Positions 4,426 through 60,826 of a DNA stretch of 64,000 bases are shown one piece after another. The notes below the pieces were generated by a model, which saw only the letters and a list, made by a program, of their open reading frames with translations, was not told where the DNA came from and did no database searches. The translations under genes and the position numbers were made by a program. Within the stretch, counting starts at the first letter, position 1. Every line of letters starts with the position of its first letter. This stretch comes from an uncultured bacterium (GTDB lineage Bacteria; Zhuqueibacterota; QNDG01; DTFT01): NCBI GenBank assembly GCA_963736115.1, contig CAVTNR010000022.1, forward strand, positions 32,001-96,000. Reading direction: 5' to 3'.

Positions 4426-4562
4426 AGTTCATGGTTGATAGTTCATAGTTCATTGTTAAAAAATGTTCGTGGTTTACAGTTCATCATTCATTGTGAATAA
4501 ATAGATTCATGAGCGACAGATTTTTTTCTGAACTATGAACTATGAACCATGAACTATGAACT
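4426..4562. repeat. Inverted heptamer-array hairpin, RGTTCAT type, copy 1
   Basis: Left arm AGTTCATGGTTGATAGTTCATAGTTCATTGTT; right arm TGAACTATGAACTATGAACCATGAACTATGAACT. Confidence 0.9.
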
Positions 4563-4622
4563 GAAAATGTATCCGGAGTACGAAAACTGAAATCACTAAA
4601 AAACATTCCCGTCTGGCTGTCC

Positions 4623-6284
4623 TTGATCGGTCTGTGTTTTGCCTGCGCCAAGCAGGGCTTTCCGCCCGGCGGGCCGGAGGACAAAACGCCTCCCGCTGTG
4701 ACGGGGACGGCCCCCGGACAGGGCATGGTGAGCGTACCCCTGAGCGCAGCGGTTGAAATCCGCTTCAGCGAGCCGGTGAAACCGGGGCCGTCCGGAGAAG
4801 CGGTCTTCATCTCTCCCTTCGAGGGGCCGAACACAGTCGTGAAATGGAAGGGGAGTCGCCTCCGGATCCAATTCCGAAAACCGCTCAAGCCGAACTGCAC
4901 CTATGTGGTGACGTTGGGATCCTCGATCCGCGATTACCGTAACAATAAGATGGACTCCTCGTTCACGCTGGCATTCTCTACGGGCCCGGCGTTGGATCTC
5001 GGTGAAATCGCGGGCCGCGTGTACGCATCCGGGGATGCGGGCACGGATGTGTGGGCATACCGGCTGGACGGGATCGCGGACGGCGGCGCGGATCCGGATC
5101 CCGCGGTCCGGACTCCCGATTACATTGTCCAGGCTGCCGCGGACGGCGCCTTCCGCTTCAGGCATGTGGCGCCGGTCCGATACCGGCTGTTCGCGGTCCG
5201 CGACCGGGCGGGGGACCGGCTGTACCAGCCCGGAGAGGACGAGATCGGCGTACCGAGCCGGGACGTGGAGCCGGACCCCGGCGGCGCGCTCCGTGCGGAC
5301 AGCTGTTTTTTCCGGCCGACCAGGCGGGAGCAGGGCGTTCCCGCGCTTCAGGCGGTCACGGCAACGGACCGGAACCATCTGTCCGTCCGGTTCGACCGCT
5401 GGCTGACGTCCGCCGCCCCGATTCCGGAAAACGGCGTGATCATCGCCGCGGCCGCGGACTCCTCGGACCGTCTTGCGGTGCGGACCGCTTATTTGAACCG
5501 GGAGAATCCCCGCGAGCTTTTTGTCGTGACCGCGGACCAGGAGGAGAAGAAACCATACTGGTTTTTCCTGAGAACCGACTGGACCGCGATTCACCCGGAT
5601 ACGGCCTGGTGGAAGGCGTCGTTCACCGGCTCCGGACGCCCCGATACCACGCGGCCGAAAATCCTGAAATCATCGCCGGCATTCCGGGAACGCGCATTCA
5701 ACCCCCTGGCCCCGGTGCGACTGACCTTCGACGAGGCCATGGACACGGTCCGGTTTTTATCCGGATTTTCACTTTCGGACACATCCGGCCGTCCGGTTGA
5801 CGGCCTTATCCGGTGGGCCGATCCGGCGGAAGCGCACTTTACGCCTGCGGCCGCCTTCACCGGTCCGGCGGACTACGAGCTGAGATTGACGGGCGCGGGA
5901 GCCGCGGACGTCTGCGGCAACGCGCTCGCGGACACGCTCCTCCCTTTCCGCACATCGACCGCGGACACGTTTTCCGAGATCGCGGGAACGGTCCGCCTGT
6001 CCCGCCGGGGCCCGTCCGGGATTTTTATTGTCACCGCGGTTCAGGCCTCCGCGCCGGATGTCCGGTACACCGTCCGTGCGTCGGACAACGGCGGCTACCG
6101 GATACGCGAATGCCTGCCCGGACCGTACCTGCTGGATAGCTTTCTCGACCGCGACGGCAACGGCGCCTGGTCGGCCGGCGCGCCCTTTCCCTTCGAACCT
6201 TCGGAGCGTTTCGTCGTATACCGGGATACGGTGCAGGTGCGATCGCGCTGGCCGAATGAAGGCAATGACCTGACACTTCCGTAA
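4623..6284 (+). CDS. Ig-like (Big_5) domain lipoprotein
   Basis: FAC-AKQGFPPGGPEDKTPP N-terminus and two D.T.P...FSE/FDE Ig-like modules. Start is uncertain. Confidence 0.8.
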   Translation: MIGLCFACAKQGFPPGGPEDKTPPAVTGTAPGQGMVSVPLSAAVEIRFSEPVKPGPSGEAVFISPFEGPNTVVKWKGSRLRIQFRKPLKPNCTYVVTLGSSIRDYRNNKMDSSFTLAFSTGPALDLGEIAGRVYASGDAGTDVWAYRLDGIADGGADPDPAVRTPDYIVQAAADGAFRFRHVAPVRYRLFAVRDRAGDRLYQPGEDEIGVPSRDVEPDPGGALRADSCFFRPTRREQGVPALQAVTATDRNHLSVRFDRWLTSAAPIPENGVIIAAAADSSDRLAVRTAYLNRENPRELFVVTADQEEKKPYWFFLRTDWTAIHPDTAWWKASFTGSGRPDTTRPKILKSSPAFRERAFNPLAPVRLTFDEAMDTVRFLSGFSLSDTSGRPVDGLIRWADPAEAHFTPAAAFTGPADYELRLTGAGAADVCGNALADTLLPFRTSTADTFSEIAGTVRLSRRGPSGIFIVTAVQASAPDVRYTVRASDNGGYRIRECLPGPYLLDSFLDRDGNGAWSAGAPFPFEPSERFVVYRDTVQVRSRWPNEGNDLTLP

Positions 6285-6293
6285 GGAGAAGGA

Positions 6294-14196: not shown

Positions 14197-14206
14197 GAAA
14201 GCGGCC

Positions 14207-15019
14207 ATGAGACGCGGAATACGTCTTCTCCCTCTCTGGATCCTCCTGGTCCTGTCCGCGGCCTGCGTCACGGCGGTTCAGCGGAAACTGGACCGGGACC
14301 GGTCTGTGCATTTTGTGGACACCCGGCCCGTATTTCTGCCGAACGGCAAACTGCTCCGGTGGATGAGCATGGGTCATACCGCGTCATTTGCGGACGCGCT
14401 CTGGATTCAGAGTGTTCTCTACTTCGGCCGGCGGGTCATGGACCACGATAACCCGTATTACATGTATGCCTTGCGTCAGGGAATGCTGGACCGGGAGATG
14501 GAACGCGTCAAGCGGCCGGAAGTGCATCTTCCGGTCAATCCGGGTTTCGAGGTCCTGCATTCGCACCTCTTCTTCGGATTTAAAGAACGCGGCATGGTCG
14601 GCGATGTCTACCCGCTTCTCGACCGGGTGACCACGCTCGATCCGCATTTTATTGATCCCTATATTTTCGGAGGCGTATACGTCCTGATGAGCACAGGCGA
14701 GCTCGACGCGGCGGAAAGCCTTTTACTCAAGGGACACCGGGAGAACCCCGGCTCCTGGAAACTCGCGTTCTACCTCGGCTGGTATTACTGGATGTACAGG
14801 GGGGATGCCGATCAAAGCCGCGTTTATATGGAGCGCGCCGTGGCCCTGCCCGGATGCAGGGATTATGTGTTCAGCCTCCTGAAAGGCGTCTCGCGACAGG
14901 CCGATAAGTTGGACCTGACGGTTCAGTACCTGAGAGGCGTGCTCGAGAGCACGGACAATCCGGAAATCCGGAAGAAGATACAGAAGGAACTCGAAGCGCT
15001 GGAGGCGGCGCGGAAATAA
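14207..15019 (+). CDS. TPR-like accessory protein (PilG-like)
   Basis: N-terminal TM, AD.LWIQ.V.YFG and TTLDPHF..PY.FG motifs, helical repeats, co-transcribed with the ABC genes. Confidence 0.65.
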   Translation: MRRGIRLLPLWILLVLSAACVTAVQRKLDRDRSVHFVDTRPVFLPNGKLLRWMSMGHTASFADALWIQSVLYFGRRVMDHDNPYYMYALRQGMLDREMERVKRPEVHLPVNPGFEVLHSHLFFGFKERGMVGDVYPLLDRVTTLDPHFIDPYIFGGVYVLMSTGELDAAESLLLKGHRENPGSWKLAFYLGWYYWMYRGDADQSRVYMERAVALPGCRDYVFSLLKGVSRQADKLDLTVQYLRGVLESTDNPEIRKKIQKELEALEAARK

Positions 15020-15140
15020 GTTCATCGTTCATGGTTCCTGGTTCATAGTTCAAAAAAATGTAATTTATCAGTATTGATTTCCTTCTTTCACTATGAACGA
15101 TACACTATCAACAATGAACTGTTTTCACAATGAACCATGA
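15019..15140. repeat. Inverted heptamer-array hairpin, RGTTCAT type, copy 2
   Basis: AGTTCATCGTTCATGGTTCCTGGTTCATAGTTCA overlaps the TAA stop. Right arm CTATGAAC...CAATGAAC...CAATGAACCATGAA. Confidence 0.85.
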
Positions 15141-15162
15141 AATTCTTTTTAAAGGAGACCCC

Positions 15163-15396: not shown

Positions 15397-15432
15397 TTCT
15401 GCCGCATCGCGATCTCCCGCTCCGGCAGTCTC

Positions 15433-17908: not shown

Positions 17909-20242
17909 ATGACCGTTCCCGACCACGCACAGCCGCCGTCTCCGCGCTCCATGAACTTCATCCTGGTGAGCGCCTTTTTCAGCCTGTTCTACTGGGTGCT
18001 TGAATCCGTGCGCGACGTCATTGTGTTCGACAAGGGCACGATCTGGAGCCGCCTGTTCAAACCAGACCTGATGAGCTTCTGGATGCGGATGCTCATCGTC
18101 TGCATCCTGTTCCTCTTCGGCATCTACGCGCAGTCCCTGAAACAAAAGCTCGATGTGCCGGACGTGAAGGCGCAGAAGCGGCTTCGGCGTCTTGGCATGG
18201 TCTGGCGGGGACTCGGATTCGGCCTGCTGTACTGGGTGCTGGAGGCGTTCCGCGATGTGATCGTCTTTCACAAGGGCGGCTTGCTCGAGCGGCTGTTTCA
18301 GCCCGATCTGATCAGCGTCTGGATGCGCCTGCTCGCCGTCTGCGTCATGCTGCTGTTCAGCGTCTATGCGGAAAACCTGTTCGAGGAGCGCGAGAGGGCC
18401 AAACAGGCGCTGCAGAAGGCGCATGACGATCTTGAAGATCTCGTCCGGAAGAGGACGTCCGAGCTGGTCCAGTCCTATGAAATGCTCAAGCGGGAGAACG
18501 AGGAACGGAGCCACGTCGAGGACGAACTGCTCCGAGTCAACCGGGCGCTGAAAACCCTGTCGCAATGCAACGAGGTCATGGTCCGGGCAACCGAGGAGAA
18601 AGCGCTCTTCGACAGCGTCTGCCGCATCCTGGTGGACGTGGGCGGCTATCCCTTCACCTGGGTCGGGCTGGCCGAACCGGACGGCCCCGGCCTCCTGCGG
18701 CCCGTCGCGTCCGCCGGCCGCGCGGATTACGGTTTCGCGCCGGAATCCATGGTGTCGGACGGGGCCGGCGGGAATCCGTTTTTCGGGGTGATCCGCGACG
18801 GCCGGCCGAAGCGGATTCCGCTGACCGGCGGGGATTTGCCGGGATCGCAATGGTCGCGTCCGGCCGTGGAACAGGGGTTTACATCCGCGCTGGCCCTTCC
18901 GCTGACCGCGGGGGAAAAAACATACGGCGTCCTATGCATCTTCTCCGTGGCTGCGGAGTCTTTCGACACTTCCGAGATCGACCTGATGCAGGAGCTCGCG
19001 GACGACCTGGCCTTCGGGGTCACCGCGCTCCGCACCCGGCTCGAGCGGAACCGAGCGGAGGAGGAGAACGAGAAAATGCGGGCCCAGCTCCTCCACGCTC
19101 AGAAGCTCGAGGCCGTGGGCATACTGGCCGGGGGCGTGGCGCACGATTTCAACAACCTTCTGACGGCCATCCAGGTCAGCGCCGATCTCGCCATGCTGGA
19201 CATACGGGACGGCGACCCGGTCCGCAACACGCTGCAGGAAATCCACCAGACGGCCGCCCGTGCGGGGGATCTGGCCCGCCAGCTCCTTCTGTTCAGCCGC
19301 AAACATCCGATGGAATACACTCCGCTGAACATCAACCAGACGATCGAGCACCTCAATAAAATGCTGCACCGTCTCATCGGTGAGGATATCGAGATTCAAA
19401 TGGCCCTGTGCCGGAATCCCTGGAGCGTCATGGCCGACCGGGGGACCATCGAGCAGCTGCTGGTGAACATCGCGGTGAATGCGCGAGACGCCATGCCCGA
19501 AGGCGGTCAGCTCCTCATCCGGTCCGCCAACATCGAGATTTCGCCGGAGGAGTCGCGGCGGATACCGGAGTCCCGGCCGGGGCAATTCGTCCGCCTCACC
19601 CTGCAGGACACCGGCATCGGCATGACGCCCGAGACCCTGTCCCGCATCTTCGAGCCGTTTTTCAGCACCAAAGGCCCGGGCCGCGGAACCGGCCTGGGGC
19701 TCTCGGTGGTCTACGGCATCGTCAAACAGCATGAGGGGTGGATCAATGTGACGAGCAGTCCCGGAAACGGGGCGCGCTTCGAGGTCTATCTGCCGGCGGT
19801 GTCGGAATCCGCGGCCGCCGATCTGCCCCAGAGCGTTGCGCCGGGCGACCTGCAGGGCAGGGGAGAGCGGATTCTGCTGGTCGAGGATGAGAACAGCGTG
19901 CGGGAATACACGGAAAAAGCGCTGACCAAGTCCGGCTACCGGGTGGAAACCGCGACCAGCGCCCAGGAGGCCATGGCCGTTTTCGAACGGGAGAAGACTG
20001 CCTTTGACCTGGTCTTCAGCGATGTCGTGCTTCCCGACCGCAGCGGCATCGAACTCGTGGAAAACCTGAAGGCCCGCAACCGGGACCTGGCCGTTTTGCT
20101 GAACAGCGGGTACACGGATCACAAATCCCAGTGGCCGCTGATCGTGCAGAAGGGCTTCCGCTACCTGCAGAAGCCCTACTCCCTCAACGAGCTCCTGAAG
20201 GCGATGCGGGAGGTTCTTCAGAAAGACAAAAGAAGTTCATAG
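17909..20242 (+). CDS. Hybrid sensor histidine kinase (duplicated TM input, GAF, HisKA, HATPase, REC)
   Basis: GGVAHDFNNLL, NARDAMP, DTGIGM, FFSTK, GTGLGL, ILLVEDE, SDVVLP. Start uncertain. Confidence 0.92.
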   Translation: MTVPDHAQPPSPRSMNFILVSAFFSLFYWVLESVRDVIVFDKGTIWSRLFKPDLMSFWMRMLIVCILFLFGIYAQSLKQKLDVPDVKAQKRLRRLGMVWRGLGFGLLYWVLEAFRDVIVFHKGGLLERLFQPDLISVWMRLLAVCVMLLFSVYAENLFEERERAKQALQKAHDDLEDLVRKRTSELVQSYEMLKRENEERSHVEDELLRVNRALKTLSQCNEVMVRATEEKALFDSVCRILVDVGGYPFTWVGLAEPDGPGLLRPVASAGRADYGFAPESMVSDGAGGNPFFGVIRDGRPKRIPLTGGDLPGSQWSRPAVEQGFTSALALPLTAGEKTYGVLCIFSVAAESFDTSEIDLMQELADDLAFGVTALRTRLERNRAEEENEKMRAQLLHAQKLEAVGILAGGVAHDFNNLLTAIQVSADLAMLDIRDGDPVRNTLQEIHQTAARAGDLARQLLLFSRKHPMEYTPLNINQTIEHLNKMLHRLIGEDIEIQMALCRNPWSVMADRGTIEQLLVNIAVNARDAMPEGGQLLIRSANIEISPEESRRIPESRPGQFVRLTLQDTGIGMTPETLSRIFEPFFSTKGPGRGTGLGLSVVYGIVKQHEGWINVTSSPGNGARFEVYLPAVSESAAADLPQSVAPGDLQGRGERILLVEDENSVREYTEKALTKSGYRVETATSAQEAMAVFEREKTAFDLVFSDVVLPDRSGIELVENLKARNRDLAVLLNSGYTDHKSQWPLIVQKGFRYLQKPYSLNELLKAMREVLQKDKRSS

Positions 20243-20333
20243 TTCATAGAAAAAGCCGCAAGCAGAGGTTTGCGGCTTTTTAACTGTATCGGGGGGAGGT
20301 GAACTATGAACCATGAACAATGAACAATGAACT
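20234..20333. repeat. Inverted heptamer-array hairpin, RGTTCAT type, copy 3, enclosing a terminator
   Basis: AGTTCATAGTTCATAG supplies the kinase TAG stop. Right arm TGAACTATGAACCATGAACAATGAACAATGAACT. Confidence 0.85.
20250..20281. terminator. Bidirectional intrinsic terminator
   Basis: AAAAAGCCGCAA...TTGCGGCTTTTT between convergent genes. Confidence 0.75.
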
Positions 20334-21165: not shown

Positions 21166-21259
21166 AGTTCATAGTTCATGGTTCATAGTTAAGAGAAATT
21201 TTGGAAAAGCGTTTATTTTTCTTTTTCAACAATGAACTATGAACCATGAACCATGAACT
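21166..21259. repeat. Inverted heptamer-array hairpin, RGTTCAT type, copy 4
   Basis: AGTTCATAGTTCATGGTTCATAGTT...AACAATGAACTATGAACCATGAACCATGAACT. Confidence 0.9.
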
Positions 21260-23819: not shown

Positions 23820-23887
23820 CGTTCCGAGTTCCGGGTTTCGGGTTCCGGGTTGAAGAACTCGGAACACGGAACTCGAAACCTGGAACG
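23820..23887. repeat. Inverted heptamer-array hairpin, RGTTCCG type
   Basis: CGTTCCGAGTTCCGGGTTTCGGGTTCCGGGTT-gaag-AACTCGGAACACGGAACTCGAAACCTGGAACG. Confidence 0.9.
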
Positions 23888-26114: not shown

Positions 26115-26197
26115 AGTTCATAGTTCATGGTTCCTAGTTCATAGTTGAAAAGGAAAATCTGTCTCAACAATGAACAATGAACTATGAACCATGAACT
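26115..26197. repeat. Inverted heptamer-array hairpin, RGTTCAT type, copy 5
   Basis: AGTTCATAGTTCATGGTTCCTAGTTCATAGTTGA...TCAACAATGAACAATGAACTATGAACCATGAACT. Confidence 0.9.
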
Positions 26198-26242: not shown

Positions 26243-29200
26243 ATGAAATTCATCGCGGACTTCCACATCCATTCGCATTTCTCGCTCGCCACGAGCGGCC
26301 TGCTCAAGCCGGAGCATCTCGACCGGTGGGGCCGCATCAAGGGCATCCGGGTCATCGGAACCGGCGACTTCACCCACCCGGGCTGGGTGGCGGAATTGAA
26401 GGAAAAGCTGGATCCCGCGGAACCGGGTTTGTACAGACTCAAGCCGGCGCTCCGTCTGCCCGCATTTGGAGGCCCGACGGATGCGGACGACGGCGTCCGC
26501 TTCATGCTCACCGCAGAGATCAGCTGTATCTACAAGCGGTCGGGCCGCGTGCGCAAGGTGCACAATGTTGTCTTTGCGCCGGATTTCGAGAGCGCGGAGC
26601 GCATCCAAAGCCGGCTCAGGTCCATGGACTTCAATATCACCTCGGACGGACGGCCCATTCTCGGTTTCGATTCACGGGACCTGCTTGAACTCTGCCTGAA
26701 CGCCTCTCCGGACATCTTCTTCGTCCCGGCCCACATCTGGACGCCGTGGTTTTCCGCGCTCGGCGACAAGTCCGGATTCGATTCGATCCGCGAATGTTAC
26801 GCGGACCTGTCGGATCACATTCATGCCGTGGAAACCGGGCTCTCGTCCGATCCAGCGATGAACCGGCTGTGCAGTCAACTCGATCCGTACGCCCTCATCT
26901 CTAATTCAGACGCCCATTCGCCCGAGAAACTTGGACGCGAGGCGAACCGGTTCGATGCGGAACTCTCGTACCCCGCCATCATGGAAGCGCTGAAGCATCC
27001 GGACTCGGGCCGGTTTCTCGGAACAGTGGAATTCTTTCCCCAGGAAGGCAAATACCACCACGACGGACACCGCAAATGCGGCATTTCCTGGACGCCGGAT
27101 GAGACGGATCGGCATGCCGGGATCTGTCCCGTGTGCGGGAAACAAGTGACCGTCGGCGTTCTCAATCGTGTGCATCAGCTGGCGGACCGCAGCGGCCAGG
27201 AGGAGAAAATCGGACGGCCGACGTTCCGGTCCATCATTCCGCTCTGCGAAGTGCTGTCCGAGATCCGAGGCACAGGTCCGCACAGCAAGGCGGTGCAGGC
27301 TGATTACGCGGCCGTGGTCCGGAAACTCGGAAGCGAGCTGGACATTCTGCTCGAAGCGGAAGCAGAGGACATCCGGAATGCCGGGGGCGCATTGCTCGTC
27401 GAGGCGGTCAAGCGGATGCGGGATGGACGCGTGTCCGTTGAGGCGGGCTATGACGGGGAATACGGCCGTATTCGCGTATTCGGTCCGGAAGACAGACAGT
27501 CGCTCAGTCAGGAGAGTCTGTTCATCGGTGATTCCGAGCCAGTCGGACAACCGGTCCGGCGGGGGCGCATGAAAAAAAGCGAGGCCGCGGTCGGTGAAAA
27601 AGGATCGAACGGGTCCGGAAGAAAGGAGACGGGGAAGGACGCCGCAGGCGCCGGATTCATCCTTTCGGCACGGCCGAATACCCGTGCCCTTTCAGCGGAG
27701 GAGGGATCCGGCGGGACCGCAGGAGAGGGATCCGGGACGACCGGCCGAGTTCCGCTCAACGCGGAGCAGGAAGCGGCCGCGATTCACGACAGCGGGCCCG
27801 CGCTGGTTCTGGCCGGTCCCGGAACAGGCAAAACAGCCGTGCTGACCGGCCGGATTCTCCGCCTGATACAAGGTCGCGGCGTTCCGCCGGAACGCATTCT
27901 CGCCATCACCTTCACCAACAAGGCTGCTGAAGAGATACGCAGCCGTGTGTCCGCGGCCACCGGGGGGCCGGTAGAAGGGAAGCGGATGCCGTCCGTCCTG
28001 ACTTTCCATTCCTTCGGCCATGCTTTGCTCCGGGAGCGGCCGGACTGTTTCGGCCGGAACCGTGATTTCCGCATCGCGGATGAAGACGACACGCTCGATA
28101 TCCTCAGAACCTTATATCCGGAATCAAAAGACGTTCGTCGTTTCGCGAAAATGCTGAAACAGTCGGTGGGAAAAGCCGGACCGGAGACGGGAGTGACGGA
28201 CGCGGATGCTTCGGACGGGGAACAGCAGGCGCTGAGGGACCGTTACGAAGAAGCGCTCCGGTCCGAAAACCTGTTTGATTTCAGCGATCTGCTGACCCGG
28301 CCGTTGCGGCTGTTCCGGGAGGATGCGGAATGGGCCCGTTCCGTTGCCGGCCGGTACGATCACATCCTGGTGGACGAGTTCCAGGACGCGGACGAAGCGC
28401 AGTACGAGTGGATGAGGCTTCTGGCTGGGCGGGATTCCGGGGCGGGGTCGCCTCATCTCTGGGCGGTGGGAGACCCGGACCAGTCCATATACGGTTTCCG
28501 CGGCGCCAGCCCGGTTTTCATGACCCGGTTCACCGAGGATTTCCCGGGCGTCACGGTGTACCGTCTGACGCGCAGTTACCGGTGTCCGGATACGGTGCTG
28601 CGGGCATCGGGGATGGTTTTACTGAAAGCCGGTTCCGGGTTCCGAGTTCCGGGTTCCGTGTTGGAAGAGAGCGGTTCCGCGTTCCGCGTTCCGGGTTCCG
28701 GGTCGAAAAATGAAAATGATTCGGAAAATGATTCGGGGGGTGTGTCATGCCCGTTAAAACGGACCAAGCAATCCTATTTCTTGAATAGGGAAGGCCCGCA
28801 TTCCTTAAGCGGGCATCCAGGGGCGTGGGTAGAGAGGTCGAATCTCCGCGGAACGGACGAGAAGGTCAAGGTCCGCATTGCGGGAAACGTATCCGAGGCG
28901 TCCGAGGCGGAGTTCATCAGCCGCACCATTGAGGCGATGACGGGCGGCGTTCGGTTCTTTTCCATGGACAGCGGCATCACAACCGGAGCGGAGGAGGAAT
29001 CGCTTGGTTTTTCCGACTTCGCCGTGCTGTGCCGGATCAGCCGTCAGTTTCCGGCATTGGAAAAAGCATTTCGCGATCACGGCATTCCGTACCGCCGCTC
29101 GGACGCGGAGCCGTTCTACAGGCGGGAGCCCGCGAAAACAATCGTTAAGGCGCTTAAAAAATGTTCCGTGTTTCGGGTTCCGGGTTCCGGGTTAAAAGAA

Positions 29201-29962
29201 ACGGGTTCCGAGTTCCGAGTTCAGGGTTCCGGGTTGAAAAACGAAAATGATTCAGGGGGGGATGTCATTCCCGTTGAAACGGACCAAGCAATTCTATTTA
29301 TTGATCGTGGAAGGCCCGCGTTCTTGAAGCGGGAATCCAGGGAGGGGGGAGAGAGTTCAGAGGAAGAGAAGGCTTCCGAGTTCCGGGTCCCGAGTTCGGA
29401 GTTGAACGAAAAGGAATGGTCCGAGCTTGCGGCCGTCACGGGCAGGGTGCCTGTCCGCGACCTGATCCACAGGCTGATCTCCGTCCTCCCTCCGGTTTCG
29501 GATCCCGCGGACAGGCTCGATCTGGAACTGCTGGCGGAGCGGTCCGTCCCGTTCGGAACGGACTTGCCCGCTTTTCTGGCCGCGCTGGCCCTGGGATCAG
29601 GACCCGACTGGGTCCGTACCGGAGGCGATTCCGTATCGCTCTTCACCTTGCACGCGGCCAAGGGGCTGGAATTCCCGTGCGTCTTCATCGCGGGCGTGGA
29701 GGACGGCCTTCTGCCCTACACCCTGTCCGGTCAATCCTCCTGCGACCCGGAAGAGGAACGCCGTCTGCTTTACGTGGGCATGACGCGCGCCAAGAAGCAT
29801 CTGATCCTGTCCCACGCCGACCGGCGGGAGCTGTTCGGCCGCATGCGCAATCCCGCGAGAAGCCCGTTTCTCGATGACATCGAACAGACGCTTCTCAGCA
29901 CTGGAAAAGCGCAGGGAAAGAGGGGCCGAAAGCCCGGCCGGGACCAGTTGAATCTGTTTTAG
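26243..29962 (+). CDS. EndoQ-like PHP nuclease fused to a UvrD/PcrA SF1 helicase
   Basis: PHP part: DFHIHS, GTGDFTHP, PAHIWTPW, NSDAHS, HRKC..CPVC, GYDGEYG. Helicase part: AGPGTGKT, TFTNKAA, VDEFQD, GDPDQSIYGFRGA, TLHAAKGLEF, EERRLLYVGMTRAK. Confidence 0.92.
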   Translation: MKFIADFHIHSHFSLATSGLLKPEHLDRWGRIKGIRVIGTGDFTHPGWVAELKEKLDPAEPGLYRLKPALRLPAFGGPTDADDGVRFMLTAEISCIYKRSGRVRKVHNVVFAPDFESAERIQSRLRSMDFNITSDGRPILGFDSRDLLELCLNASPDIFFVPAHIWTPWFSALGDKSGFDSIRECYADLSDHIHAVETGLSSDPAMNRLCSQLDPYALISNSDAHSPEKLGREANRFDAELSYPAIMEALKHPDSGRFLGTVEFFPQEGKYHHDGHRKCGISWTPDETDRHAGICPVCGKQVTVGVLNRVHQLADRSGQEEKIGRPTFRSIIPLCEVLSEIRGTGPHSKAVQADYAAVVRKLGSELDILLEAEAEDIRNAGGALLVEAVKRMRDGRVSVEAGYDGEYGRIRVFGPEDRQSLSQESLFIGDSEPVGQPVRRGRMKKSEAAVGEKGSNGSGRKETGKDAAGAGFILSARPNTRALSAEEGSGGTAGEGSGTTGRVPLNAEQEAAAIHDSGPALVLAGPGTGKTAVLTGRILRLIQGRGVPPERILAITFTNKAAEEIRSRVSAATGGPVEGKRMPSVLTFHSFGHALLRERPDCFGRNRDFRIADEDDTLDILRTLYPESKDVRRFAKMLKQSVGKAGPETGVTDADASDGEQQALRDRYEEALRSENLFDFSDLLTRPLRLFREDAEWARSVAGRYDHILVDEFQDADEAQYEWMRLLAGRDSGAGSPHLWAVGDPDQSIYGFRGASPVFMTRFTEDFPGVTVYRLTRSYRCPDTVLRASGMVLLKAGSGFRVPGSVLEESGSAFRVPGSGSKNENDSENDSGGVSCPLKRTKQSYFLNREGPHSLSGHPGAWVERSNLRGTDEKVKVRIAGNVSEASEAEFISRTIEAMTGGVRFFSMDSGITTGAEEESLGFSDFAVLCRISRQFPALEKAFRDHGIPYRRSDAEPFYRREPAKTIVKALKKCSVFRVPGSGLKETGSEFRVQGSGLKNENDSGGDVIPVETDQAILFIDRGRPAFLKRESREGGESSEEEKASEFRVPSSELNEKEWSELAAVTGRVPVRDLIHRLISVLPPVSDPADRLDLELLAERSVPFGTDLPAFLAALALGSGPDWVRTGGDSVSLFTLHAAKGLEFPCVFIAGVEDGLLPYTLSGQSSCDPEEERRLLYVGMTRAKKHLILSHADRRELFGRMRNPARSPFLDDIEQTLLSTGKAQGKRGRKPGRDQLNLF
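28631..28837 (+). repeat. In-frame repeat-derived insert 1 in the UvrD domain
   Basis: Two RGTTCCG arrays, then GAAAATGATTC, then TGTCATGCCCG...CGGGCATCCAG. Confidence 0.85.
29162..29403 (+). repeat. In-frame repeat-derived insert 2 in the UvrD domain
   Basis: Homologous to insert 1 (TGTCATTCCCG...CGGGAATCCAG) with a third heptamer array at about 29373-29403. Confidence 0.85.
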
Positions 29963-56310: not shown

Positions 56311-56868
56311 ATGGACGGCCTGACCCTTCTGCTCATCTCGTTCGGTCTTTCCATGGACGCGTTCGCGGTGTCCGTGTCCTGCGGCATTTGCGGACGGCCG
56401 AAGAAGTGGAGTCTCATCGCGCGGGTCGGCCTGTACTTCGGCGGGTTTCAGGCGTTGATGCCCGTGCTCGGTTGGCTGGCCGGAACCCGGCTCAAGGGGC
56501 CCATCTCGTCGGTGGACCACTGGGTGGCTTTCGGGCTTCTGGCGCTGATCGGCGTGAAAATGATACACGAGTCCTTCACCATCGGGGCCAGGCGTTTTGA
56601 TCCGCGCAGGCACAAGGTGTTGCTCACCCTGGCCGTGGCCACGAGCATTGACGCGCTGGCCGTCGGTCTGAGCTTTGCTCTGCTCGACGGCGGTATTCTC
56701 ATTCCGGCCTTGACGATCGGCATGGTCACGTTCTGTGTTTCCTGCCTGGGCGTGATGATCGGGGACCGGGTCGGATCGACCTTCGAGAAAGCGGCGGAGA
56801 TTCTCGGCGGCATCATACTGATCGGTATTGGCTTGAAAATCCTTCTGGAGCACACACTGACCCCCTGA
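56311..56868 (+). CDS. mntP: Manganese efflux pump MntP
   Basis: GLSMDAFAVS, FQALMP, DHWVAF.LL, ATSIDALAVG. Confidence 0.92.
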   Translation: MDGLTLLLISFGLSMDAFAVSVSCGICGRPKKWSLIARVGLYFGGFQALMPVLGWLAGTRLKGPISSVDHWVAFGLLALIGVKMIHESFTIGARRFDPRRHKVLLTLAVATSIDALAVGLSFALLDGGILIPALTIGMVTFCVSCLGVMIGDRVGSTFEKAAEILGGIILIGIGLKILLEHTLTP

Positions 56869-56885
56869 TCCTTTTCGGAGGCCGC

Positions 56886-57680: not shown

Positions 57681-57689
57681 AAAACTCTC

Positions 57690-57750
57690 GTTCCGGGTTT
57701 CGAGTTTCGGGTTCCGAGTTGACAATTATTTCTGACCCGGAACGTGGAAT
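57690..57750. repeat. Inverted heptamer-array hairpin, RGTTCCG type (short right arm)
   Basis: GTTCCGGGTTTCGAGTTTCGGGTTCCGAGTT...ACCCGGAACGTGGAAT. Confidence 0.75.
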
Positions 57751-57793
57751 TCACCCCTCAGGGTTTCATTGATGAAACTTCGGAAATCAACAT

Positions 57794-57896
57794 GTCCGAA
57801 AGCCTCGCCTGCTTCGCAGGCTCGGCATTTCGGACCTACAACTTGAGACTTCTGAAAAATTGACGAATCCCCGGTAGCCGCGAGCTTTAGCTCGCG
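57794..57896. repeat. GTAG-type REP-like palindromes
   Basis: GTCCGAAA...TTTCGGACCTAC (GTAG on the minus strand) and GTAGCCGCGAGCTTTAGCTCGCG. Confidence 0.55.
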
Positions 57897-58008
57897 CCAA
57901 ATCGAATTTTCCCGAGACGGGAGATGCCTGGAATCGCCAATTCCCCTGATTTTTCAGAAGTTTGAACTTGAAATGGAGCGGTCGACAAAACGCAGCTGGA
58001 GGGTTACG

Positions 58009-58972
58009 ATGATAAAGGAACTCAAATCCGCCACACTCGACACCCGGGCGTTCATCAAAACACAGGTGACGCAAATCGCGGAGACCGTGGGCGACGGCAC
58101 GGCCATCAACGCGCTGTCCGGAGGCGTGGACTCCTCCGTGGTCACTCTGCTGGGCCATCGGGCGCTGGGAAAGCGGCTCCGCACCGTATTCGTGGAGAAC
58201 GGCATCATGCGCGAGGGCGAGGCCGGCCGCGTGAAATCGATGTTCGCGAAGCTGGGCGTCAAGGTCGAGGTCGTGGACGCGAAGGACGAGTTCTTCGCCG
58301 CCCTGAAGGGCATCACGGACCCGAGGAGAAGCGCGAGGCCATCACGCAGACGTTCTACAAGCATGTGTTCGGCCGCATCGTCCGGGAGAGCGGCAGCCCG
58401 TTTTCTGCTGCAGGGCACCATTCTGACCGATGTCGACGAGACCGTGGCCGGCATCAAGCGCCAGCACAACGTGTTCGAACAGCTCGGCATCGACCCTCAG
58501 GAGACCTTCGGGTACCGCATTCTGGAGCCGTTGATCCAGTTGCGCAAGGACGGCGTCCGGAAGGTCGGGAAGGCAGCTGGGCCTGCCCGTCGAATCGTTC
58601 AAGCGCATTCCGTTCCCAGGGCCCGCGCTCGCGGCACGCGTGATCGGCGAGGCCACGCCGGAGCGCATCGACACCGTCCGAAAAGCCACGGTGATCGTCG
58701 AAAAGGCGCTGTGCCGGACGAAGGCCTTTCAGTACATGGCCATTCTGCATGCGGACCGCGTGACCGGCATGCGGGACAATAAAAGGGAGTTCGGACAGCA
58801 GATCGAGATCCGGTGCTGGGACAGTCTGGACGCGCGCAAGGCCAAACCGACACGCCTGCCGTTCGCGGTTCTCGAAAAGCTGGCGAACGACATCACCCGC
58901 AAGGTGCCGGGCGTGGTCAGCGTGACTTACAATATCGCCACCAAGCCGCCGTCGACGATGGAAGCGGTTTAA
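58009..58972 (+). CDS. guaAB: GMP synthase ATP-pyrophosphatase subunit B (three apparent single-base indels)
   Basis: PP-loop ALSGGVDSSV, LLQGTI, IKRQHNV, EPL..LRKD.VR, PFPGPALAARV, YNIATKPPSTME. No GATase domain. Frame changes near 58324, 58395 and 58576. Confidence 0.85.
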
Positions 58973-58977
58973 AAAAA

Positions 58978-59077
58978 AGTTCATAGTTCATGGTTCATAG
59001 TTCATTGTTAAAAGAGAAAGCTTGAGGCGCCAAAATCCCGTTTTTAACCATGAACCATGAACTATGAACCATGAACT
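58978..59077. repeat. Inverted heptamer-array hairpin, RGTTCAT type, copy 6
   Basis: AGTTCATAGTTCATGGTTCATAGTTCATTGTT...AACCATGAACCATGAACTATGAACCATGAACT. Confidence 0.92.
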
Positions 59078-59095
59078 TTCAGAAAGGGAGGCATC

Positions 59096-59689
59096 GTGAA
59101 GAGACGTTTTGTGTGTTTGCTGATTCTGTCCGCACTATCCGGATCCGCAGCCGCTCCGAAAGAGACGGTTACGTCCGAAAGAATGCGCCCCGTTCTCCTG
59201 GTCGTCGACGTGCAGAATCAGTATCTCCAATACATGGATCCCGCGGACAAGGGCATTGCAATGTGGGTCATTCCGTCCGTCATTCAGGCCTTCCGCGACG
59301 GCGGATTTCCGATCATCCGGGTGTATCATACGGATCCGCAGGCCGGACCGGCCCAGGGAACCGAGGCGTTCCAGTATCCGGCAGAGATCCCCGTCAGGCC
59401 GGACGATCCGATGGTGATTAAGAACTATCCGAGTGGATTCAAGAAAACAGGCCTGGAGAAGCTGATCCGCGAAAAGGGCTGCAACACGGTGTTTCTGTGC
59501 GGCCTGAGCTCCGTCGGATGCGTGCTCGCCACGTATGAGGCGGCCGTGGACCTCGATTTCACCGCCTTCCTGGTAAAGGACGGCCTCATGTGCCACAACG
59601 CGACCTTCACCAACACCATCGAGGATATATTCGACGCGGTCGGAACCGAGGCAGTGAAGGCGATGCTGGCAAATGCGGAGAAACCCTGA
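59096..59689 (+). CDS. Isochorismatase-family cysteine hydrolase with signal peptide
   Basis: LLVVDVQN, IKNYPSGF and GLSSVGCV give the Asp-Lys-Cys triad. Confidence 0.88.
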   Translation: MKRRFVCLLILSALSGSAAAPKETVTSERMRPVLLVVDVQNQYLQYMDPADKGIAMWVIPSVIQAFRDGGFPIIRVYHTDPQAGPAQGTEAFQYPAEIPVRPDDPMVIKNYPSGFKKTGLEKLIREKGCNTVFLCGLSSVGCVLATYEAAVDLDFTAFLVKDGLMCHNATFTNTIEDIFDAVGTEAVKAMLANAEKP

Positions 59690-59699
59690 GTAGCAAGGC

Positions 59700-59824
59700 A
59701 GTTCATGGTACAGCGAGAAAAAAGTTGATATTTCATTGTTTATAGTTCATAGTAAAAAGAAATATCAGAAAATCAGATTTTTCCATTTTTTTAACTATGA
59801 ACCATGAACTCTGAACTATGAACT
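59700..59824. repeat. Inverted heptamer-array hairpin, RGTTCAT type, copy 7
   Basis: Degenerate left arm AGTTGATATTTCATTGTTTATAGTTCATAGT; right arm AACTATGAACCATGAACTCTGAACTATGAACT. Confidence 0.85.
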
Positions 59825-59867
59825 TGACGACCCGAGACCAATCAGCCAAGAGGGATGGGCACCGGAG

Positions 59868-60713
59868 ATGTGTGAGTTTTGCCATCAGCACGGCGAGGGC
59901 CGGACGTGGTACCTGGAGGCAAAAAATTACTCCGAGGACATGCTTTCGGACCTGAAGCGCAGGCGTTTCATCGAGCGATTCTTCACCCCCAGGCACAGAA
60001 GGGCCCACGACGACCGGGAAGCGGCCAAGCTCAAAAAGCTCCCGCCGTTCATCCGATCCATGGTCACCGCGGGCCTCACCCGGCATCAGAAAAAAGAGCA
60101 TTTCGGACAGGTCGTCGCCATCGAGGAAGTCGAGCGCATTTTCGGGCTCGTCCAGTCCGTGGTTCGCGTGGCCTGCTACTGCCGGCACCTCACGCTGGGC
60201 CGGGAGCACCGGGCGTGCTACGGAGTCAGTCTCGGACCGGACGGCGGGGAAATGGCCGGCATTCTCCGCGGCCTGGACAAGAGCTTTCTGAACGGACCGA
60301 AATCCCCTGGCATCGAGACCGTACCGAAGGAGGAGGCCCTGGCCGCCATGCGCGAGCACGAGCGCGAGGGACTCTGCCACACGGTCTGGACGTTCCGTGC
60401 CCCTTTCATCGGCGGCATCTGCAACTGCGACCGCTCCGACTGCCTGGCCATGCGCTGGTCCGTCACGCACGGACTGCCGGTGATGTTCAGGGCCGAGACG
60501 ATCGCGGAAGTCGATCCGGACCTGTGCTCGGGATGCCGCGCCTGCATGCGGGTGTGCTCTTTCGGCGCCTTGTCGTACAGCGCAGCGGACCGGAAGGTGA
60601 AGGTCGATTTCAGCCGCTGTTACGGCTGCGGCGTGTGCCGTGCGGTTTGCCCCAAGGACGCCATCCGCCTGAAGGACAGGAAATCCGAGCCGGTGGCGGC
60701 AGGTTTATGGTGA
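59868..60713 (+). CDS. 4Fe-4S dicluster ferredoxin-domain protein
   Basis: MCEFC, CYCR, ICNCDRSDC, CSGCRACMRVC, CYGCGVCRAVCP. Confidence 0.9.
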   Translation: MCEFCHQHGEGRTWYLEAKNYSEDMLSDLKRRRFIERFFTPRHRRAHDDREAAKLKKLPPFIRSMVTAGLTRHQKKEHFGQVVAIEEVERIFGLVQSVVRVACYCRHLTLGREHRACYGVSLGPDGGEMAGILRGLDKSFLNGPKSPGIETVPKEEALAAMREHEREGLCHTVWTFRAPFIGGICNCDRSDCLAMRWSVTHGLPVMFRAETIAEVDPDLCSGCRACMRVCSFGALSYSAADRKVKVDFSRCYGCGVCRAVCPKDAIRLKDRKSEPVAAGLW

Positions 60714-60718
60714 AAAAA

Positions 60719-60826
60719 AGTTCATAGTTCATGGTTCATAGTTCATAGTTAAAAGAAGTATCGGAAAGTTTACTTGTTTTCTTTTTCAACTATGAACAAT
60801 GAACTATGAACCATGAACCTTGAACT
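60719..60826. repeat. Inverted heptamer-array hairpin, RGTTCAT type, copy 8
   Basis: AGTTCATAGTTCATGGTTCATAGTTCATAGTT...AACTATGAACAATGAACTATGAACCATGAACCTTGAACT. Confidence 0.92.

Follow-up and report, generated by a model that had tools for sequence, protein, structure and literature searches.

Cyanobacterial STRR heptamers are dispersed tandem heptamer repeats and, more than 30 years on, we know of no agreed mechanism or function for any bacterial tandem heptamer. Among other short dispersed repeats, REPs accompany RAYT (IS200/IS605-like) transposase genes, and in the REPIN two inverted units form one hairpin that is mobilised in trans. The palindromic elements of Rickettsia are small palindromic repeats that persist in frame inside many genes of a single genome.

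In Xanthomonas, GGGAATC heptamers form 70-75 convergent inverted pairs per genome, of unknown function (Rehm et al. 2015, PMC4692102). These repeats have a mode of four units, are 89-93% intergenic and 7-11% intragenic, lie on average 28 nt from the upstream ORF as against 160 nt from the downstream ORF, and are found mostly between co-directional genes, with few in divergent spacers; they are transcribed, and Rehm et al., who saw no regulatory role for them, attribute the four-unit preference to quadruplex formation by the G-rich unit (PMC4692102). Geobacter metallireducens carries paired arrays that fall into classes 1-3 and a family of four GGACCGG units (Aklujkar et al. 2009, PMC2700814), which those authors interpret as sites for an IHF/HU-type regulator or as regulatory RNAs. 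The TAACTGA repeats of Beggiatoaceae occur in 169 direct sets and one indirect set, mostly just upstream of starts (MacGregor 2015, PMC4679880), and the same account describes tandem heptamers, dispersed and mostly intergenic, that are shared by Cyanobacteria, Bacteroidetes and Beggiatoaceae and spread by no known mechanism. Among the long simple repeats of bacteria, heptamers show the strongest over-representation, and slippage has been given as the cause (Mrazek 2007, cited in PMC4679880 and PMC4692102).

Two further systems combine hairpins with effects on RNA. The 23S rRNA intervening sequence of Coxiella has a 28-bp terminal stem and tandem GACAGAT heptamers ahead of the S23p start (Warrier et al. 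2016, PMC4990558), and is excised by RNase III at the first repeat; the heptamers of intervening sequences are variable in number and lie on the 5' side, and the elements are regarded as selfish (PMC4990558). REPs are abundant intergenic hairpins, many of them no more than 15 nt from a stop codon, that affect mRNA stability and upstream translation, and at such a distance they stall ribosomes (PMC12306157).

Results

Inventory of elements

The window, that is, the whole 64-kb stretch of DNA that was analysed, contains all ten of the hairpins recorded in an initial annotation, eight of RGTTCAT type and two of RGTTCCG type, and two composite copies within a gene. They are listed below in order, the hairpins without strand and with the z score of their RNA fold against shuffled sequences; the type is RGTTCAT unless given.

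4421..4563 (e4426): forward module 4421-4463, partial second forward module 4459-4494 and reverse module 4524-4563; 5 nt past the pdxJ stop at 4418-4420 (Pfam PdxJ); z -7.5
15019..15142 (e15019): overlaps the TAA stop (15017-19) of ORF 14207-15019; right arm degenerate; downstream gene starts at 15164, preceded by an AAGGAG site; z -2.1
20234..20333 (e20234): between convergent genes; two units in the left arm and five in the right; TAG stop of a histidine kinase gene (20240-20242) inside the first heptamer; spacer with a canonical two-way terminator hairpin at about 20250-20281, with a 14-bp inner stem; z -6.1
21166..21259 (e21166): between two minus-strand genes; end of right arm 3 nt from the stop of the gene at 21263-21709, minus strand; z -8.2
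23820..23886 (e23820): GTTCCG type, 4 + 4 units, 4-nt loop; 12 nt from the MatE gene stop at 23899-23901, minus strand; z -6.5
26115..26197 (e26115): 4 + 4 units; 75 nt past the HSP20 stop, directly behind a canonical terminator at 26067-26091 and 45 nt ahead of the helicase start; z -8.8
28626..28829, plus strand: intragenic composite copy A; two head-to-tail GTTCCG modules (28626-28670, 28670-28711) and a 95-nt repeat (28735-28829)
29157..29410, plus strand: intragenic composite copy B; modules 29157-29201 and 29199-29242, 95-nt repeat 29255-29349 and a fifth module 29374-29410
57690..57750 (e57690): GTTCCG type; 9 nt past the purC stop at 57678-57680; right arm down to one unit (module-profile E = 1); z -2.3
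58978..59077 (e58978): 4 + 4 units; 5 nt past the stop at 58970-58972 and 18 nt ahead of a GTG start at 59096; z -8.7
59700..59824 (e59700): left arm degenerate, right arm of 4 units; 10 nt past the stop at 59687-59689; z -5.1
60719..60826 (e60719): 4 + 5 units; 5 nt past the stop at 60711-60713; the third consecutive element-bearing spacer in one gene string, which ends at a canonical terminator at 61945-61967; z -8.3

Module architecture

The heptamer motif GTTCATRGTTCAT, allowing at most one mismatch, matches 45 times against 0.05 expected from 100 shuffles, and the GTTCCG pattern, allowing at most two, matches 38 times against 8.1 expected. TRF recovered period-7 arrays at all sites, and runs of three or more head-to-tail 7-nt copies are far commoner than composition would give. 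Both subtypes, RGTTCAT and RGTTCCG, are built on one module of about 45 nt, in which an A-rich lead is followed by about four tandem heptamers and a closing GTTRAAAAGA. With an nhmmer model trained on 16 of the modules themselves, 25 modules were found in the 64 kb at E <= 0.05 and none elsewhere in the window; 20 of these make up ten face-to-face palindromes of 70-140 nt in short intergenic spacers, a density of about one element per 5 kb, and five stand head-to-tail and in frame inside the helicase ORF at 26243-29962. All ten pairs are forward-then-reverse, mostly of 4 + 4 units, with loop spacers of 4-80 nt and with unit numbers that are unequal between arms in places, as in the two against five of e20234. 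The arms have no internal dyad, each being a tandem array and not a palindrome.

When the arms are aligned, the unit register is constant between copies, variant units included; the variant unit GGTTCCT at position 3 is common to two copies, and the order of A and G at the seventh base of the heptamer is common among copies. GTTRAAAAGA closes every forward array and is mirrored on the opposite side, in both subtypes, and 73-nt stretches including the spacer align between copies at 62-78%. The arms, for which the initial annotation gave two to five tandem 7-mers, are not of free length, and the spacer that it had called unconserved is in part conserved. A slippage repeat would have a free array length and no fixed flanking motif, whereas here there are about four units in register followed by GTTRAAAAGA; and neither the RGTTCAT nor the RGTTCCG unit contains the run of three G that a quadruplex requires. 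No Rfam 15 family matched at its gathering score anywhere in the window, nor did any match even at E <= 1 within 28500-29500. A near-identical element is present in another uncultured bacterium (L037).

Placement relative to genes

For nine of the ten elements the stop of a gene with Pfam support is 0-12 nt away, the exception being e26115, and two overlap the stop itself (e15019 and e20234), both as the initial annotation had proposed; for e21166 and e23820, where it cited plus-strand stops, the relevant stop belongs to the minus-strand gene beside the right arm. Among co-directional cases eight of nine are closer to the stop than to the next start (binomial p 0.02), and under a null of uniform placement the Fisher-combined p is 0.0025, or 0.022 with 15 nt before each start barred. 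It also proved correct that divergent promoter regions are avoided: none of the ten elements falls in the four divergent spacers of the window, against 3.2 expected by length (P 0.02). The genes flanking the elements have no function in common, and 31 of the 40 co-directional spacers of the window contain no element. In the RGTTCAT elements 46 of 48 reading frames contain a stop, while in GTTCCG arrays none of the six does. Outside the window, GTTCAT arrays occur in many phyla and are mostly unpaired (131 of 150 in other genomes), and crude gene calls place 28 of 69 stop sides within 12 nt as against 17 of 63 start sides, a weak bias.

Placement behind stops describes most of the ten hairpins but not the whole family, since five GTTCCG modules that the initial annotation missed lie in frame in a UvrD-type helicase ORF (26243-29962), at 28626-28711, 29157-29242 and 29374-29410. 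Over about 215 nt, 82% of positions agree between composite copies A and B. In an alignment of eight helicase homologues, the three distant ones (P0009, P0013 and P0093) have no inserts, while the five closer ones have heptamer-encoded inserts, of other types and lengths, at the identical two sites. A search of 1.84 billion representatives recovered the composite insert in no other protein family; its nine matches comprise the orthologue, two weak matches to repeat proteins and, for the rest, pure heptamer translations. In-frame copies were seen in one helicase and its orthologues only.

Folding and terminators

RNA folds of eight of the ten elements have z scores of -5.1 to -8.8 against shuffles, e15019 and e57690 being the weak folders. 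Four-heptad arms pair into stems of about 28-36 bp, in which mismatches recur at the seventh position of the heptamer, and two copies have lost pairing with no compensating changes. The ten stems are not of the intrinsic-terminator type, being A+U-rich and followed by ACUUUC, ACUCUC, ACUUGA and the like with no direct U run. A consensus terminator scan of 14000-30000 and 56000-62000, which accepts loops of 3-8 nt only and takes in nine of the ten hairpins (the e4426 region lies outside these ranges), lists none of them. Canonical terminators were detected at 26067 and 61945, and among the elements only the spacer of e20234 holds one.

Mobility and the PF05635 genes

The initial annotation had placed any trans factor outside the window and, in agreement with this, no transposase, RAYT-like or PF05635 gene is present among the 85 window ORFs scanned (50 + 35). 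The window spacers hold no remnant of a PF05635 gene, and no target-site duplication was seen by eye at the flanks of all ten elements; the abundance of A in the left flanks and of T in the right ones is part of the palindrome. The arms, as inverted copies of each other, are terminal inverted repeats of the sort that define a MITE. No rRNA was found in the window with Rfam, and the elements lie between or within protein genes.

The proposed search for copies with an ORF in the spacer gave candidates elsewhere, namely PF05635 genes between inverted heptamer arrays on plasmids and in other genomes. GTTCAT arrays adjoin PF05635 genes in three genomes (L074/75, L080/81 and L121), which are only three of 127 GTTCAT stretches examined. 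In L080, from another phylum, the gene has a forward (AGTTCAT)x3 array on one side and degenerate reverse units on the other; in L074 and L121, also from other phyla, arrays are adjacent to the gene, which in L074 sits between two whole hairpins and not within one. Of 13 PF05635 genes on plasmids, nine have period-7/8 arrays at their ends, compared with 18 of the 196 ORFs taken as controls (Fisher p 1.4e-6), although some of the 13 loci are interdependent, L139 being syntenic with L140 and L129 similar to L130. The duplex of upstream and downstream flanks has a median energy of -38.1 kcal/mol, as against -23.1 kcal/mol (p 3e-4). The arrays begin 0-3 nt after the upstream stop in seven of the nine plasmid loci printed, and in four of the nine (L129, L130, L139 and L140) the PF05635 stop falls within the reverse array. 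At one locus, L138, the insertion is a genuine one into 23S rRNA, flanked on the 3' side by period-7 units. Array-bracketed PF05635 genes occur in cyanobacterial plasmids, a planctomycete, a Nitrospiria genome and a Chitinophagales genome, in a stop-to-start position. This association of PF05635 genes with arrays is a new lead from the present analysis.

Discussion

The kind of element described here is already known, though unexplained: the Xanthomonas and Geobacter pairs share its placement rules and are closer to it than the STRR and REP analogues named in the initial annotation, apt as those are. Like the Xanthomonas pairs, the window arrays are convergent, close together, mostly of four units, nearer to the upstream ORF and rare or absent between divergent genes; unlike them, they consist of units without G-tracts, yet show the same four-unit preference, and the parts of the Xanthomonas description used here include neither a conserved end motif nor a link to S23p genes (PMC4692102). 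The Geobacter sites resemble ours as opposite-strand pairs, each of 3-5 tandem 7-9-nt units and at variable distance, but their unit sequences differ and some have insertion sequences at a fixed distance (PMC2700814). With the 23S rRNA intervening sequence the window elements share stems of about 28 bp and tandem heptamers on the 5' side; however, intervening sequences lie in helix 45 (or 25) of 23S rRNA, carry an ORF and have a demonstrated excision by RNase III (PMC4990558). Where STRR and TAACTGA repeats are nearly all direct arrays, mostly before starts, the window arrays are inverted pairs behind stops. They are intergenic, form hairpins and consist of two inverted units, as do REPs and REPINs, but a single REP unit, some 20-35 nt long, is already an imperfect palindrome, while a window arm is a tandem heptamer array. 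Unlike the Rickettsia elements, they were found in frame in one helicase and its orthologues only. They differ from the S23p cassette in that their spacers of 4-80 nt hold no PF05635 ORF and in that they do not lie in an rRNA helix. Short intervening sequences without an ORF also occur in other bacteria.

Our preferred reading, in which we place about as much confidence as doubt, is that the window elements belong, as gene-less miniatures, to a wider class of heptamer-stem cassettes whose full-size form carries a PF05635 gene. PF05635 is the S23p family, a four-helix-bundle, Avd-like protein, and the studied case of the class is the 23S rRNA intervening sequence. The modules would spread by copying, with the machinery encoded outside the window and the PF05635 protein (not, to our knowledge, a known transposase) as a candidate for it. 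Selection would then retain copies only at harmless sites, such that the stop-rich type would be tolerated just behind a stop codon and the stop-free type also in frame within a tolerant protein loop. Self-copying is favoured by the shared in-register module, by the 82%-alike composites, by helicase orthologues that carry, lack or vary the inserts, by the near-identical element of L037 and by the PF05635 genes seen between inverted arrays elsewhere. To that extent the self-propagating element entertained in the initial annotation stands, and no trans factor occurs among the 85 window ORFs; propagation itself is suggested by these signs of in-register copying.

Once transcribed, the arms would pair into a stem of about 28-35 bp, which, by analogy with the intervening sequence, would probably be cut by RNase III. 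The stem starts inside the footprint of the terminating ribosome and so may, like REP hairpins, also lower translation of the gene upstream. Such effects on RNA are more likely to be by-products of a selfish element than its purpose.

Several observations weigh against gene-less cassettes. There is no PF05635, transposase or RAYT-like gene in the window, no PF05635 remnant in its spacers and no target-site duplication visible by eye; arrays elsewhere are mostly unpaired, with a weak stop bias, and only three of the 127 GTTCAT stretches are near a PF05635 gene; among 1.84 billion representatives the composite insert turned up in no protein family other than the helicase; pairing has been lost in two window copies without compensation, and RNase III cleavage and ribosome stalling enter by analogy only. 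Causation may also be reversed, with PF05635 genes landing in pre-existing arrays.

Alternatively, the hairpins could form a dedicated system of RNA-level punctuation, as the initial annotation suggested, selected for adjusting how strongly neighbouring cistrons are expressed relative to one another, by protecting 3' ends, by RNase III processing or by damping upstream translation, with copying secondary. Nine of the ten begin no more than 12 nt from a stop, in the 15-nt range over which REPs are active on terminating ribosomes (PMC12306157), and none lies in a divergent spacer; the stems are long and stable, elements occupy three successive spacers of one gene string that ends in a canonical terminator, and the Xanthomonas repeats are known to be transcribed (PMC4692102). 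Against this, two of the ten copies decayed without compensating changes, which argues against a dedicated system, and mismatches are recurrent at the seventh position. Flanking genes share no function, 31 of the 40 co-directional spacers do without an element, and the same modules occur in frame within a coding region, where punctuation is senseless; Rehm et al., moreover, saw no regulatory role for the Xanthomonas repeats (PMC4692102). What stands of the proposal is its analogy with intervening sequences and REPs, and we consider it unlikely.

Another possibility is that the arrays are double-stranded DNA sites for an abundant protein that binds contiguous heptads, whether nucleoid-associated, of IHF/HU type or of ribbon-helix-helix type, and that the inverted pairs act as chromosome clamps or loops. 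Binding of contiguous heptads has a precedent in the proteins of a plasmid partition system. Aklujkar et al. proposed a role of this kind for the paired 7-9-nt arrays of G. metallireducens (PMC2700814), and a fixed number of about four units, found in Xanthomonas and Geobacter also, is what a protein footprint predicts. The placement behind stops and not in promoter regions, and the translated in-frame copies, are nevertheless at odds with such sites, for which no candidate protein emerged, and a reading as single strands agrees better with the inverted form, with a stem of about 28 bp and with cleavage by RNase III in the intervening sequence (PMC4990558); a heptad-binding protein thus seems quite improbable.

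Local microsatellites, arising by in-place polymerase slippage from chance seeds in A-rich DNA with no copying between sites, are already disfavoured and very improbable, for although heptamer over-representation has been ascribed to slippage (Mrazek 2007, via PMC4679880 and PMC4692102), unit number differs between arms (two against five at 20234) and GTTCAT arrays occur mostly unpaired in many phyla, slippage does not account for an identical heptamer at eight sites that is always forward-then-reverse, a common A/G order at the seventh base with a common variant unit, a conserved non-repeat end motif with partly alignable spacers, or composite copies that are 82% identical.

To return to gene-less cassettes, a wider version of that reading would make heptamer-array stems and the PF05635 pentamer one widespread self-propagating cassette system, present in at least eight phyla. 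The PF05635 protein would recognise the four-heptad (28-nt) arms, and the cassette or its miniature would be written precisely between a stop and the next start, with rRNA helices (the sites of the classical intervening sequences) and tolerant loops of proteins as further targets; taken together, these claims are distinctly unlikely to hold. If true, they would account for the excess of heptamers in bacteria (STRR, Xanthomonas, Geobacter and Beggiatoa), for what the stand-alone S23p genes, thousands in number, are there to do, and for the four-unit preference, which would then not be based on quadruplexes. That preference recurs in units unable to form quadruplexes and is therefore probably a property of the element class, perhaps of its 28-bp stem.

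The window is an unusually clean case, with a high density of elements, two subtypes built on one module and strict placement rules, and it presents a natural contrast, in that the stop-filled subtype lies behind genes and the stop-free subtype survives within one. It thereby links two old puzzles, the heptamer repeats and the S23p genes, and opens them to joint experiment.

Results

All ten inverted heptamer-array hairpins described in the initial annotation, eight of RGTTCAT type and two of RGTTCCG type (23820 and 57690), are present where it placed them, and at each of these sites Tandem Repeats Finder detects arrays of period 7. The sequence GTTCATRGTTCAT, allowing at most one mismatch, has 45 matches in the window (60% G+C) against 0.05 expected from 100 dinucleotide-preserving shuffles, and the GTTCCG pattern, allowing at most two mismatches, has 38 against 8.1 expected. 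Once laid in one orientation, all arms have a module in common: an A-rich lead of 5-7 nt, then units of GTTCAT or GTTCCG, each with a purine after it, and then GTTRAAAAGA. There are about four units per arm (range 3-5), and two atypical arms have just one or two. The A/G order at the seventh position is common to the copies, a variant unit, GGTTCCT, occupies position 3 in two of them, and in families D1 and D3 of the repeat finder the two subtypes align in a single register. The spacers had been considered unconserved; they are in fact partly conserved, since 73-nt stretches that include the spacer can be aligned at 62-78% (family D4, repeat finder).

A census of the 64 kb with an nhmmer-type profile, built from 16 modules that match by construction, recovered 25 modules at E <= 0.05 and nothing beyond them. 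Of these, 19 are arms belonging to the ten inverted pairs, five lie head-to-tail inside the ORF 26243-29962, and one is a lone addition:

4459-4494, forward strand, extra forward module (module profile)

The right arm of element 57690, at 57735-57749, reaches E = 1 only. In each of the ten pairs the forward array comes first and the reverse array second; no pair in the window has them the other way round. A module-free 27 kb, 30000-57600, holds a cluster of secreted glycoside hydrolases (GH43, GH2, GH10 and GH5; type IX sorting domains); elsewhere in the window there is one element per roughly 3 kb. The type IX sorting domains of several proteins among the GH43, GH10 and GH5 hydrolases suggest that the window comes from an uncultured member of the Fibrobacteres-Chlorobi-Bacteroidetes group. 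No target-site duplications were seen by eye at the elements, and Rfam matched no family in the window, nor did it match the intragenic composite repeat at a lax threshold. The window also holds a direct repeat of 104 nt (35830-35933 and 36809-36912, 84% identity), unrelated to the heptamers, which flanks a small gene at 36209-36604. A second small repeat, G+C-rich and of about 28 nt, occurs in three copies (32919-32946, 32995-33022 and 57870-57897), the last of them in the long spacer behind element 57690.

Folded as single-stranded RNA, eight of the ten elements reach -35 to -53 kcal/mol (z -5.1 to -8.8), and for these none of 200 shuffles folds as well. The weak folders are 15019 (z -2.1) and 57690 (z -2.3), in both of which the right arm has decayed with no compensating changes in the left. 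Within the well-formed stems, position seven of the unit is frequently a wobble pair or a mismatch of A with C, and the A/G succession in one arm does not keep step with that in the other. No U run follows the stems. A consensus scan for terminators, limited to loops of 3-8 nt and run over 14000-30000 and 56000-62000, took in nine hairpins (all but 4426) and listed none of them; the canonical terminators that it reported lie at 26067-26091 and 61945-61967. A canonical two-way terminator hairpin lies in the spacer of element 20234.

Position of each element relative to the nearest stop codon of a Pfam-supported gene
4426: 5 nt, after pdxJ
15019: 0 nt, overlaps TAA
20234: stop inside element, TAG within first heptamer
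21166: 3 nt, minus-strand gene on right
23820: 12 nt, minus-strand gene on right
26115: 75 nt, behind terminator
57690: 9 nt, after purC
58978: 5 nt
59700: 10 nt
60719: 5 nt

The placement reported from first inspection, with nine of ten elements within about 12 nt of a stop and two overlapping it, is borne out: the distances are 0-12 nt with the single exception of 26115, and the overlaps are those of 15019 and 20234. In Pfam, the PdxJ match and the GMP-synthase C-terminal match each extend to the end of the profile, and so the elements behind at least the PdxJ and GMP-synthase-like genes follow natural, non-truncating stops. In co-directional cases eight of nine elements are closer to the stop than to the next start (p 0.02). 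Under uniform placement within each host spacer the Fisher-combined p is 0.0025, and excluding 10 or 15 nt ahead of the start raises it to 0.009 or 0.022. The 49 spacers (40 co-directional, 5 convergent, 4 divergent) hold 9, 1 and 0 elements respectively; the avoidance of divergent regions, also noticed earlier, compares with 3.2 elements expected by net length, at a P of 0.02, a value that depends heavily on a single region of 1074 nt in which genes may have been missed. A readthrough, frameshift or selenocysteine-type signal was dropped as a candidate; each of the three stop codons occurs, and almost no frame stays open through the elements. Three genes in the window are split over two frames, as pseudogenes or through assembly indel errors:

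23902-25017 and 24510-25301, minus strand, MatE gene in two overlapping frames
57973-58782 and 58640-58972, plus strand, GMP-synthase-like gene in two overlapping frames
61999-62469 and 62480-63235, minus strand, alpha-galactosidase gene in two frames

In RGTTCAT palindromes the forward arm contains TAG, and every unit of the reverse arm contains TGA. The initial annotation had noted that the 7-nt period shifts TAG and ATGA motifs across reading frames; stops close 46 of the 48 frame readings in the eight real RGTTCAT elements. In GGTTCCG arrays all six frames are stop-free. The intragenic modules are exclusively of GTTCCG type and translate as GSGFRVP-like peptides, a distribution that fits the closing of frames by one subtype and the freedom from stops of the other. 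We read this as a sign of selection acting on the places in which copies persist, but frame filtering alone leaves the tight packing against the stop codon unexplained.

The gene that hosts the intragenic modules (ORF 26243-29962) encodes a PHP-like/UvrD-type helicase of 1239 aa, where homologues typically have 1050-1100 aa; its best named relative is that of Caldithrix abyssi (44% identity). A long N-terminal PHP-like domain (26243-27750), of the TIGR00375 family by the name that one source gives its relatives, is fused to the UvrD core, and this fusion is kept across many uncultured lineages. The two composite inserts, copies A and B, each consist of two modules and a 95-nt repeat and are 82% identical over about 215 nt. 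In an alignment of eight of the 120 listed homologues, both are absent from three distant proteins (P0009, P0013 and the Caldithrix protein P0093), and five closer ones (52-76% identity) have inserts at the same two sites with different content, for example SSKFKVQ runs, GSGFRVP runs, a KFIVHGSW stretch and, in P0005, SGIGNRNS. Judged from their residues, these inserts would back-translate to AGTTCAA, GGTTCCG, GTTCATR and GGGAATC-like heptamers. A phmmer search with the 79-aa insert against 1.84 billion representatives gave nine hits, limited to the orthologue P0002, six pure heptamer-array translations and two weak repeat-protein matches, so that spread of the composite into other proteins is unsupported. 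A stretch of about 45 nt in both copies (28752-28796 and 29272-29316), encoding PLKRTKQSYFLNREG in copy A, is absent at the same place in P0002, the closest orthologue, and has the look of another, smaller insertion within the repeat.

A scan for three perfect GTTCAT units in other genomes gave at least 127 stretches, 80 of them with 2-kb flanks; the window's own genome is not among the matches listed. Those listed span Cyanobacteriota, Bacteroidota, Acidobacteriota, Planctomycetota and Chloroflexota, as well as Nitrospirota, Methylomirabilota, Gemmatimonadota, candidate-phyla bacteria and a few Proteobacteria. Among them are 150 distinct arrays, 131 unpaired, 12 reverse-then-forward and 7 forward-then-reverse as in the window, and elements near-identical to the window's occur in L037 (another uncultured bacterium) and L034 (Methylomirabilales). 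Within these matches, and by crude gene calls, the stop bias is weak: arrays lie within 12 nt in 28 of 69 stop sides versus 17 of 63 start sides, co-directional cases split 23 versus 20, and 8 of 75 arrays are intragenic. In that set a bias toward stop codons is not a general trait of GTTCAT arrays. In three forward-then-reverse cases (L037, L074) the upstream ORF, by eye, ends at or inside the first units. Searched against the window with blastn and tblastx, the stretches matched only through the repeats themselves and unrelated helicase/kinase similarity; the window's module model was uninformative across all loci because long arrays match by periodicity. In a Bacteroidales stretch (L023, 1880-2060) a number of distinct tandem arrays of 7 and 8 nt, GTTCATT among them, crowd side by side into the spacer ahead of a UvrD-like gene, and in a Pirellulales stretch (L080, 2780-2830, minus strand) the ATGAAC unit of an array seems to give a prepilin-type gene, so called by eye from its N-terminal methylation motif, its start codon.

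If the repeats are mobile, the initial annotation had suggested, their trans factor is not in this window; Pfam identifies no transposase, integrase, RAYT-like or PF05635 protein among its 50 main and 35 left-over ORFs, and tblastn and HMM searches for PF05635 find nothing there. Integron attC sites were rejected as a candidate, there being no integrase and only ordinary housekeeping genes alongside; the core-like ends of the elements are, we take it, oriented in reverse of attC. Elsewhere a small gene adjoins the GTTCAT arrays in L074 (Nitrospiria), L080 and L121 (Chitinophagales), and in all three it encodes the 23S rRNA-intervening sequence protein PF05635 (Pfam E 1e-21 to 1e-29); searching the 127 stretches listed and the window with a profile turned up no additional gene of this family. 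In gene orientation L080 reads (AGTTCAT)x3, AGAAAGGATACA, ATG, the PF05635 gene and degenerate reverse units, the same layout as in the window but with the spacer occupied by an ORF. L080 is thus a candidate, in another genome, for the kind of copy that had been proposed as worth seeking.

To examine the association in a separate data set, a plasmid collection was searched with the L080 protein, which matched 26 records, mostly cyanobacterial; 13 loci were read. Period-7/8 arrays of at least three units stand at the gene ends of 9 of 13 PF05635 genes versus 18 of 196 control genes (Fisher p 1.4e-6), a comparison that includes related loci (L139/L140, L129/L130), uses ORF calls in the same loci as controls and draws on cyanobacteria, which are heptamer-rich anyway. 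Two of the four misses have inverted arrays by eye (L133, with a two-letter unit dropped by the filter, and L128, with an 8-mer). Pairing between upstream and downstream flanks has a median of -38.1 kcal/mol versus -23.1 in controls (Mann-Whitney p 3e-4), and is at or below -30 kcal/mol in 11 of 13 versus 54 of 196. At seven of nine loci printed the forward array begins 0-3 nt past the upstream gene's stop, as in the Nostoc punctiforme example tag-(AGTCAGR)x5-ACAA-atg. The PF05635 stop lies within the reverse array in L129, L130, L139 and L140, and in the shorter cassettes the next gene starts within about 16-40 nt. Three PF05635 genes lie inside CRISPR-Cas operons of cyanobacterial plasmids (L128 9989-10345, L131 9980-10348 and L132 9995-10354); cas10 and cmr3 flank one of them, and cas6 and cas4 flank two, in different genera. 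In an Azospirillum lipoferum plasmid (L138, 9830-10440) the ORF is inside 23S rRNA, an unannotated true intervening sequence, with period-7 units at its 3' flank just past the PF05635 stop. At about 9945-9980 in L129, L130, L139 and L140 the AGTCAGG forward arrays carry an AGGAG ribosome-binding motif every 7 nt, and the reverse arrays its complement, so that pairing of the arms would hide the ribosome-binding site of PF05635.

Discussion

The repeats of the window are inverted four-heptad repeats behind genes, a kind already known, here in a new variant. The GGGAATC repeats of Xanthomonas include 70-75 convergent inverted pairs in each genome, have four units as their mode, are 89-93% intergenic with few between divergent genes, and lie on average 28 nt from the upstream ORF versus 160 nt to the next; they are transcribed, and a function was not found for them (Rehm et al. 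2015, PMC4692102). Geobacter metallireducens has paired 7-9-nt arrays on opposite strands and a four-heptamer family within and between genes (Aklujkar et al. 2009, PMC2700814). TAACTGA repeats have also been described (MacGregor 2015, PMC4679880), in a paper that, citing Mrazek 2007, gives heptamers as the commonest class of long simple repeat. A core common to the published heptamers (5/7 matches after rotation) was discarded as too weak, given 14 possible registers, and exact-string literature searches for the window's units returned unrelated primer hits and nothing relevant.

The S23p-ORF intervening sequence in the 23S rRNA of Coxiella has a 28-bp terminal stem, carries two or three tandem GACAGAT heptamers before its start codon and is excised by RNase III with a cut at the first repeat; older proposals of intervening-sequence mobility are quoted in the same paper (Warrier et al. 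2016, PMC4990558). PF05635 is similar to Avd, a protein found in diversity-generating retroelements (PMC10053308). In the literature searched, which leaves aside older subscription papers, we did not find a general link between PF05635 genes and heptamer arrays stated, and the Coxiella case was the sole instance.

Three other explanations deserve consideration. A dedicated punctuation system, which the initial annotation had entertained, is unlikely; in its favour is the gene string 57973-61912, where an element occupies each of three successive spacers and a canonical terminator stands at the string's end. That the elements are protein-binding sites on DNA is quite improbable. Slippage in place is very improbable as the origin of the arrays.

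The reading that we favour, and in which we place about half of our confidence, is that the elements are gene-less miniature copies of heptamer-stem cassettes. The sequences themselves show the module anatomy, the placement statistics, the frame logic and, in other genomes, the association with PF05635. Such modules would spread by copying, a process in which PF05635 may have a role, and copies would be retained where they are harmless. Once transcribed, their stems of 28-35 bp would be probable substrates of RNase III. REPs within 15 nt of a stop make ribosomes stall and lower translation (PMC12306157), and stems within 12 nt of a stop would, in the same way, probably act as brakes on the terminating ribosome.
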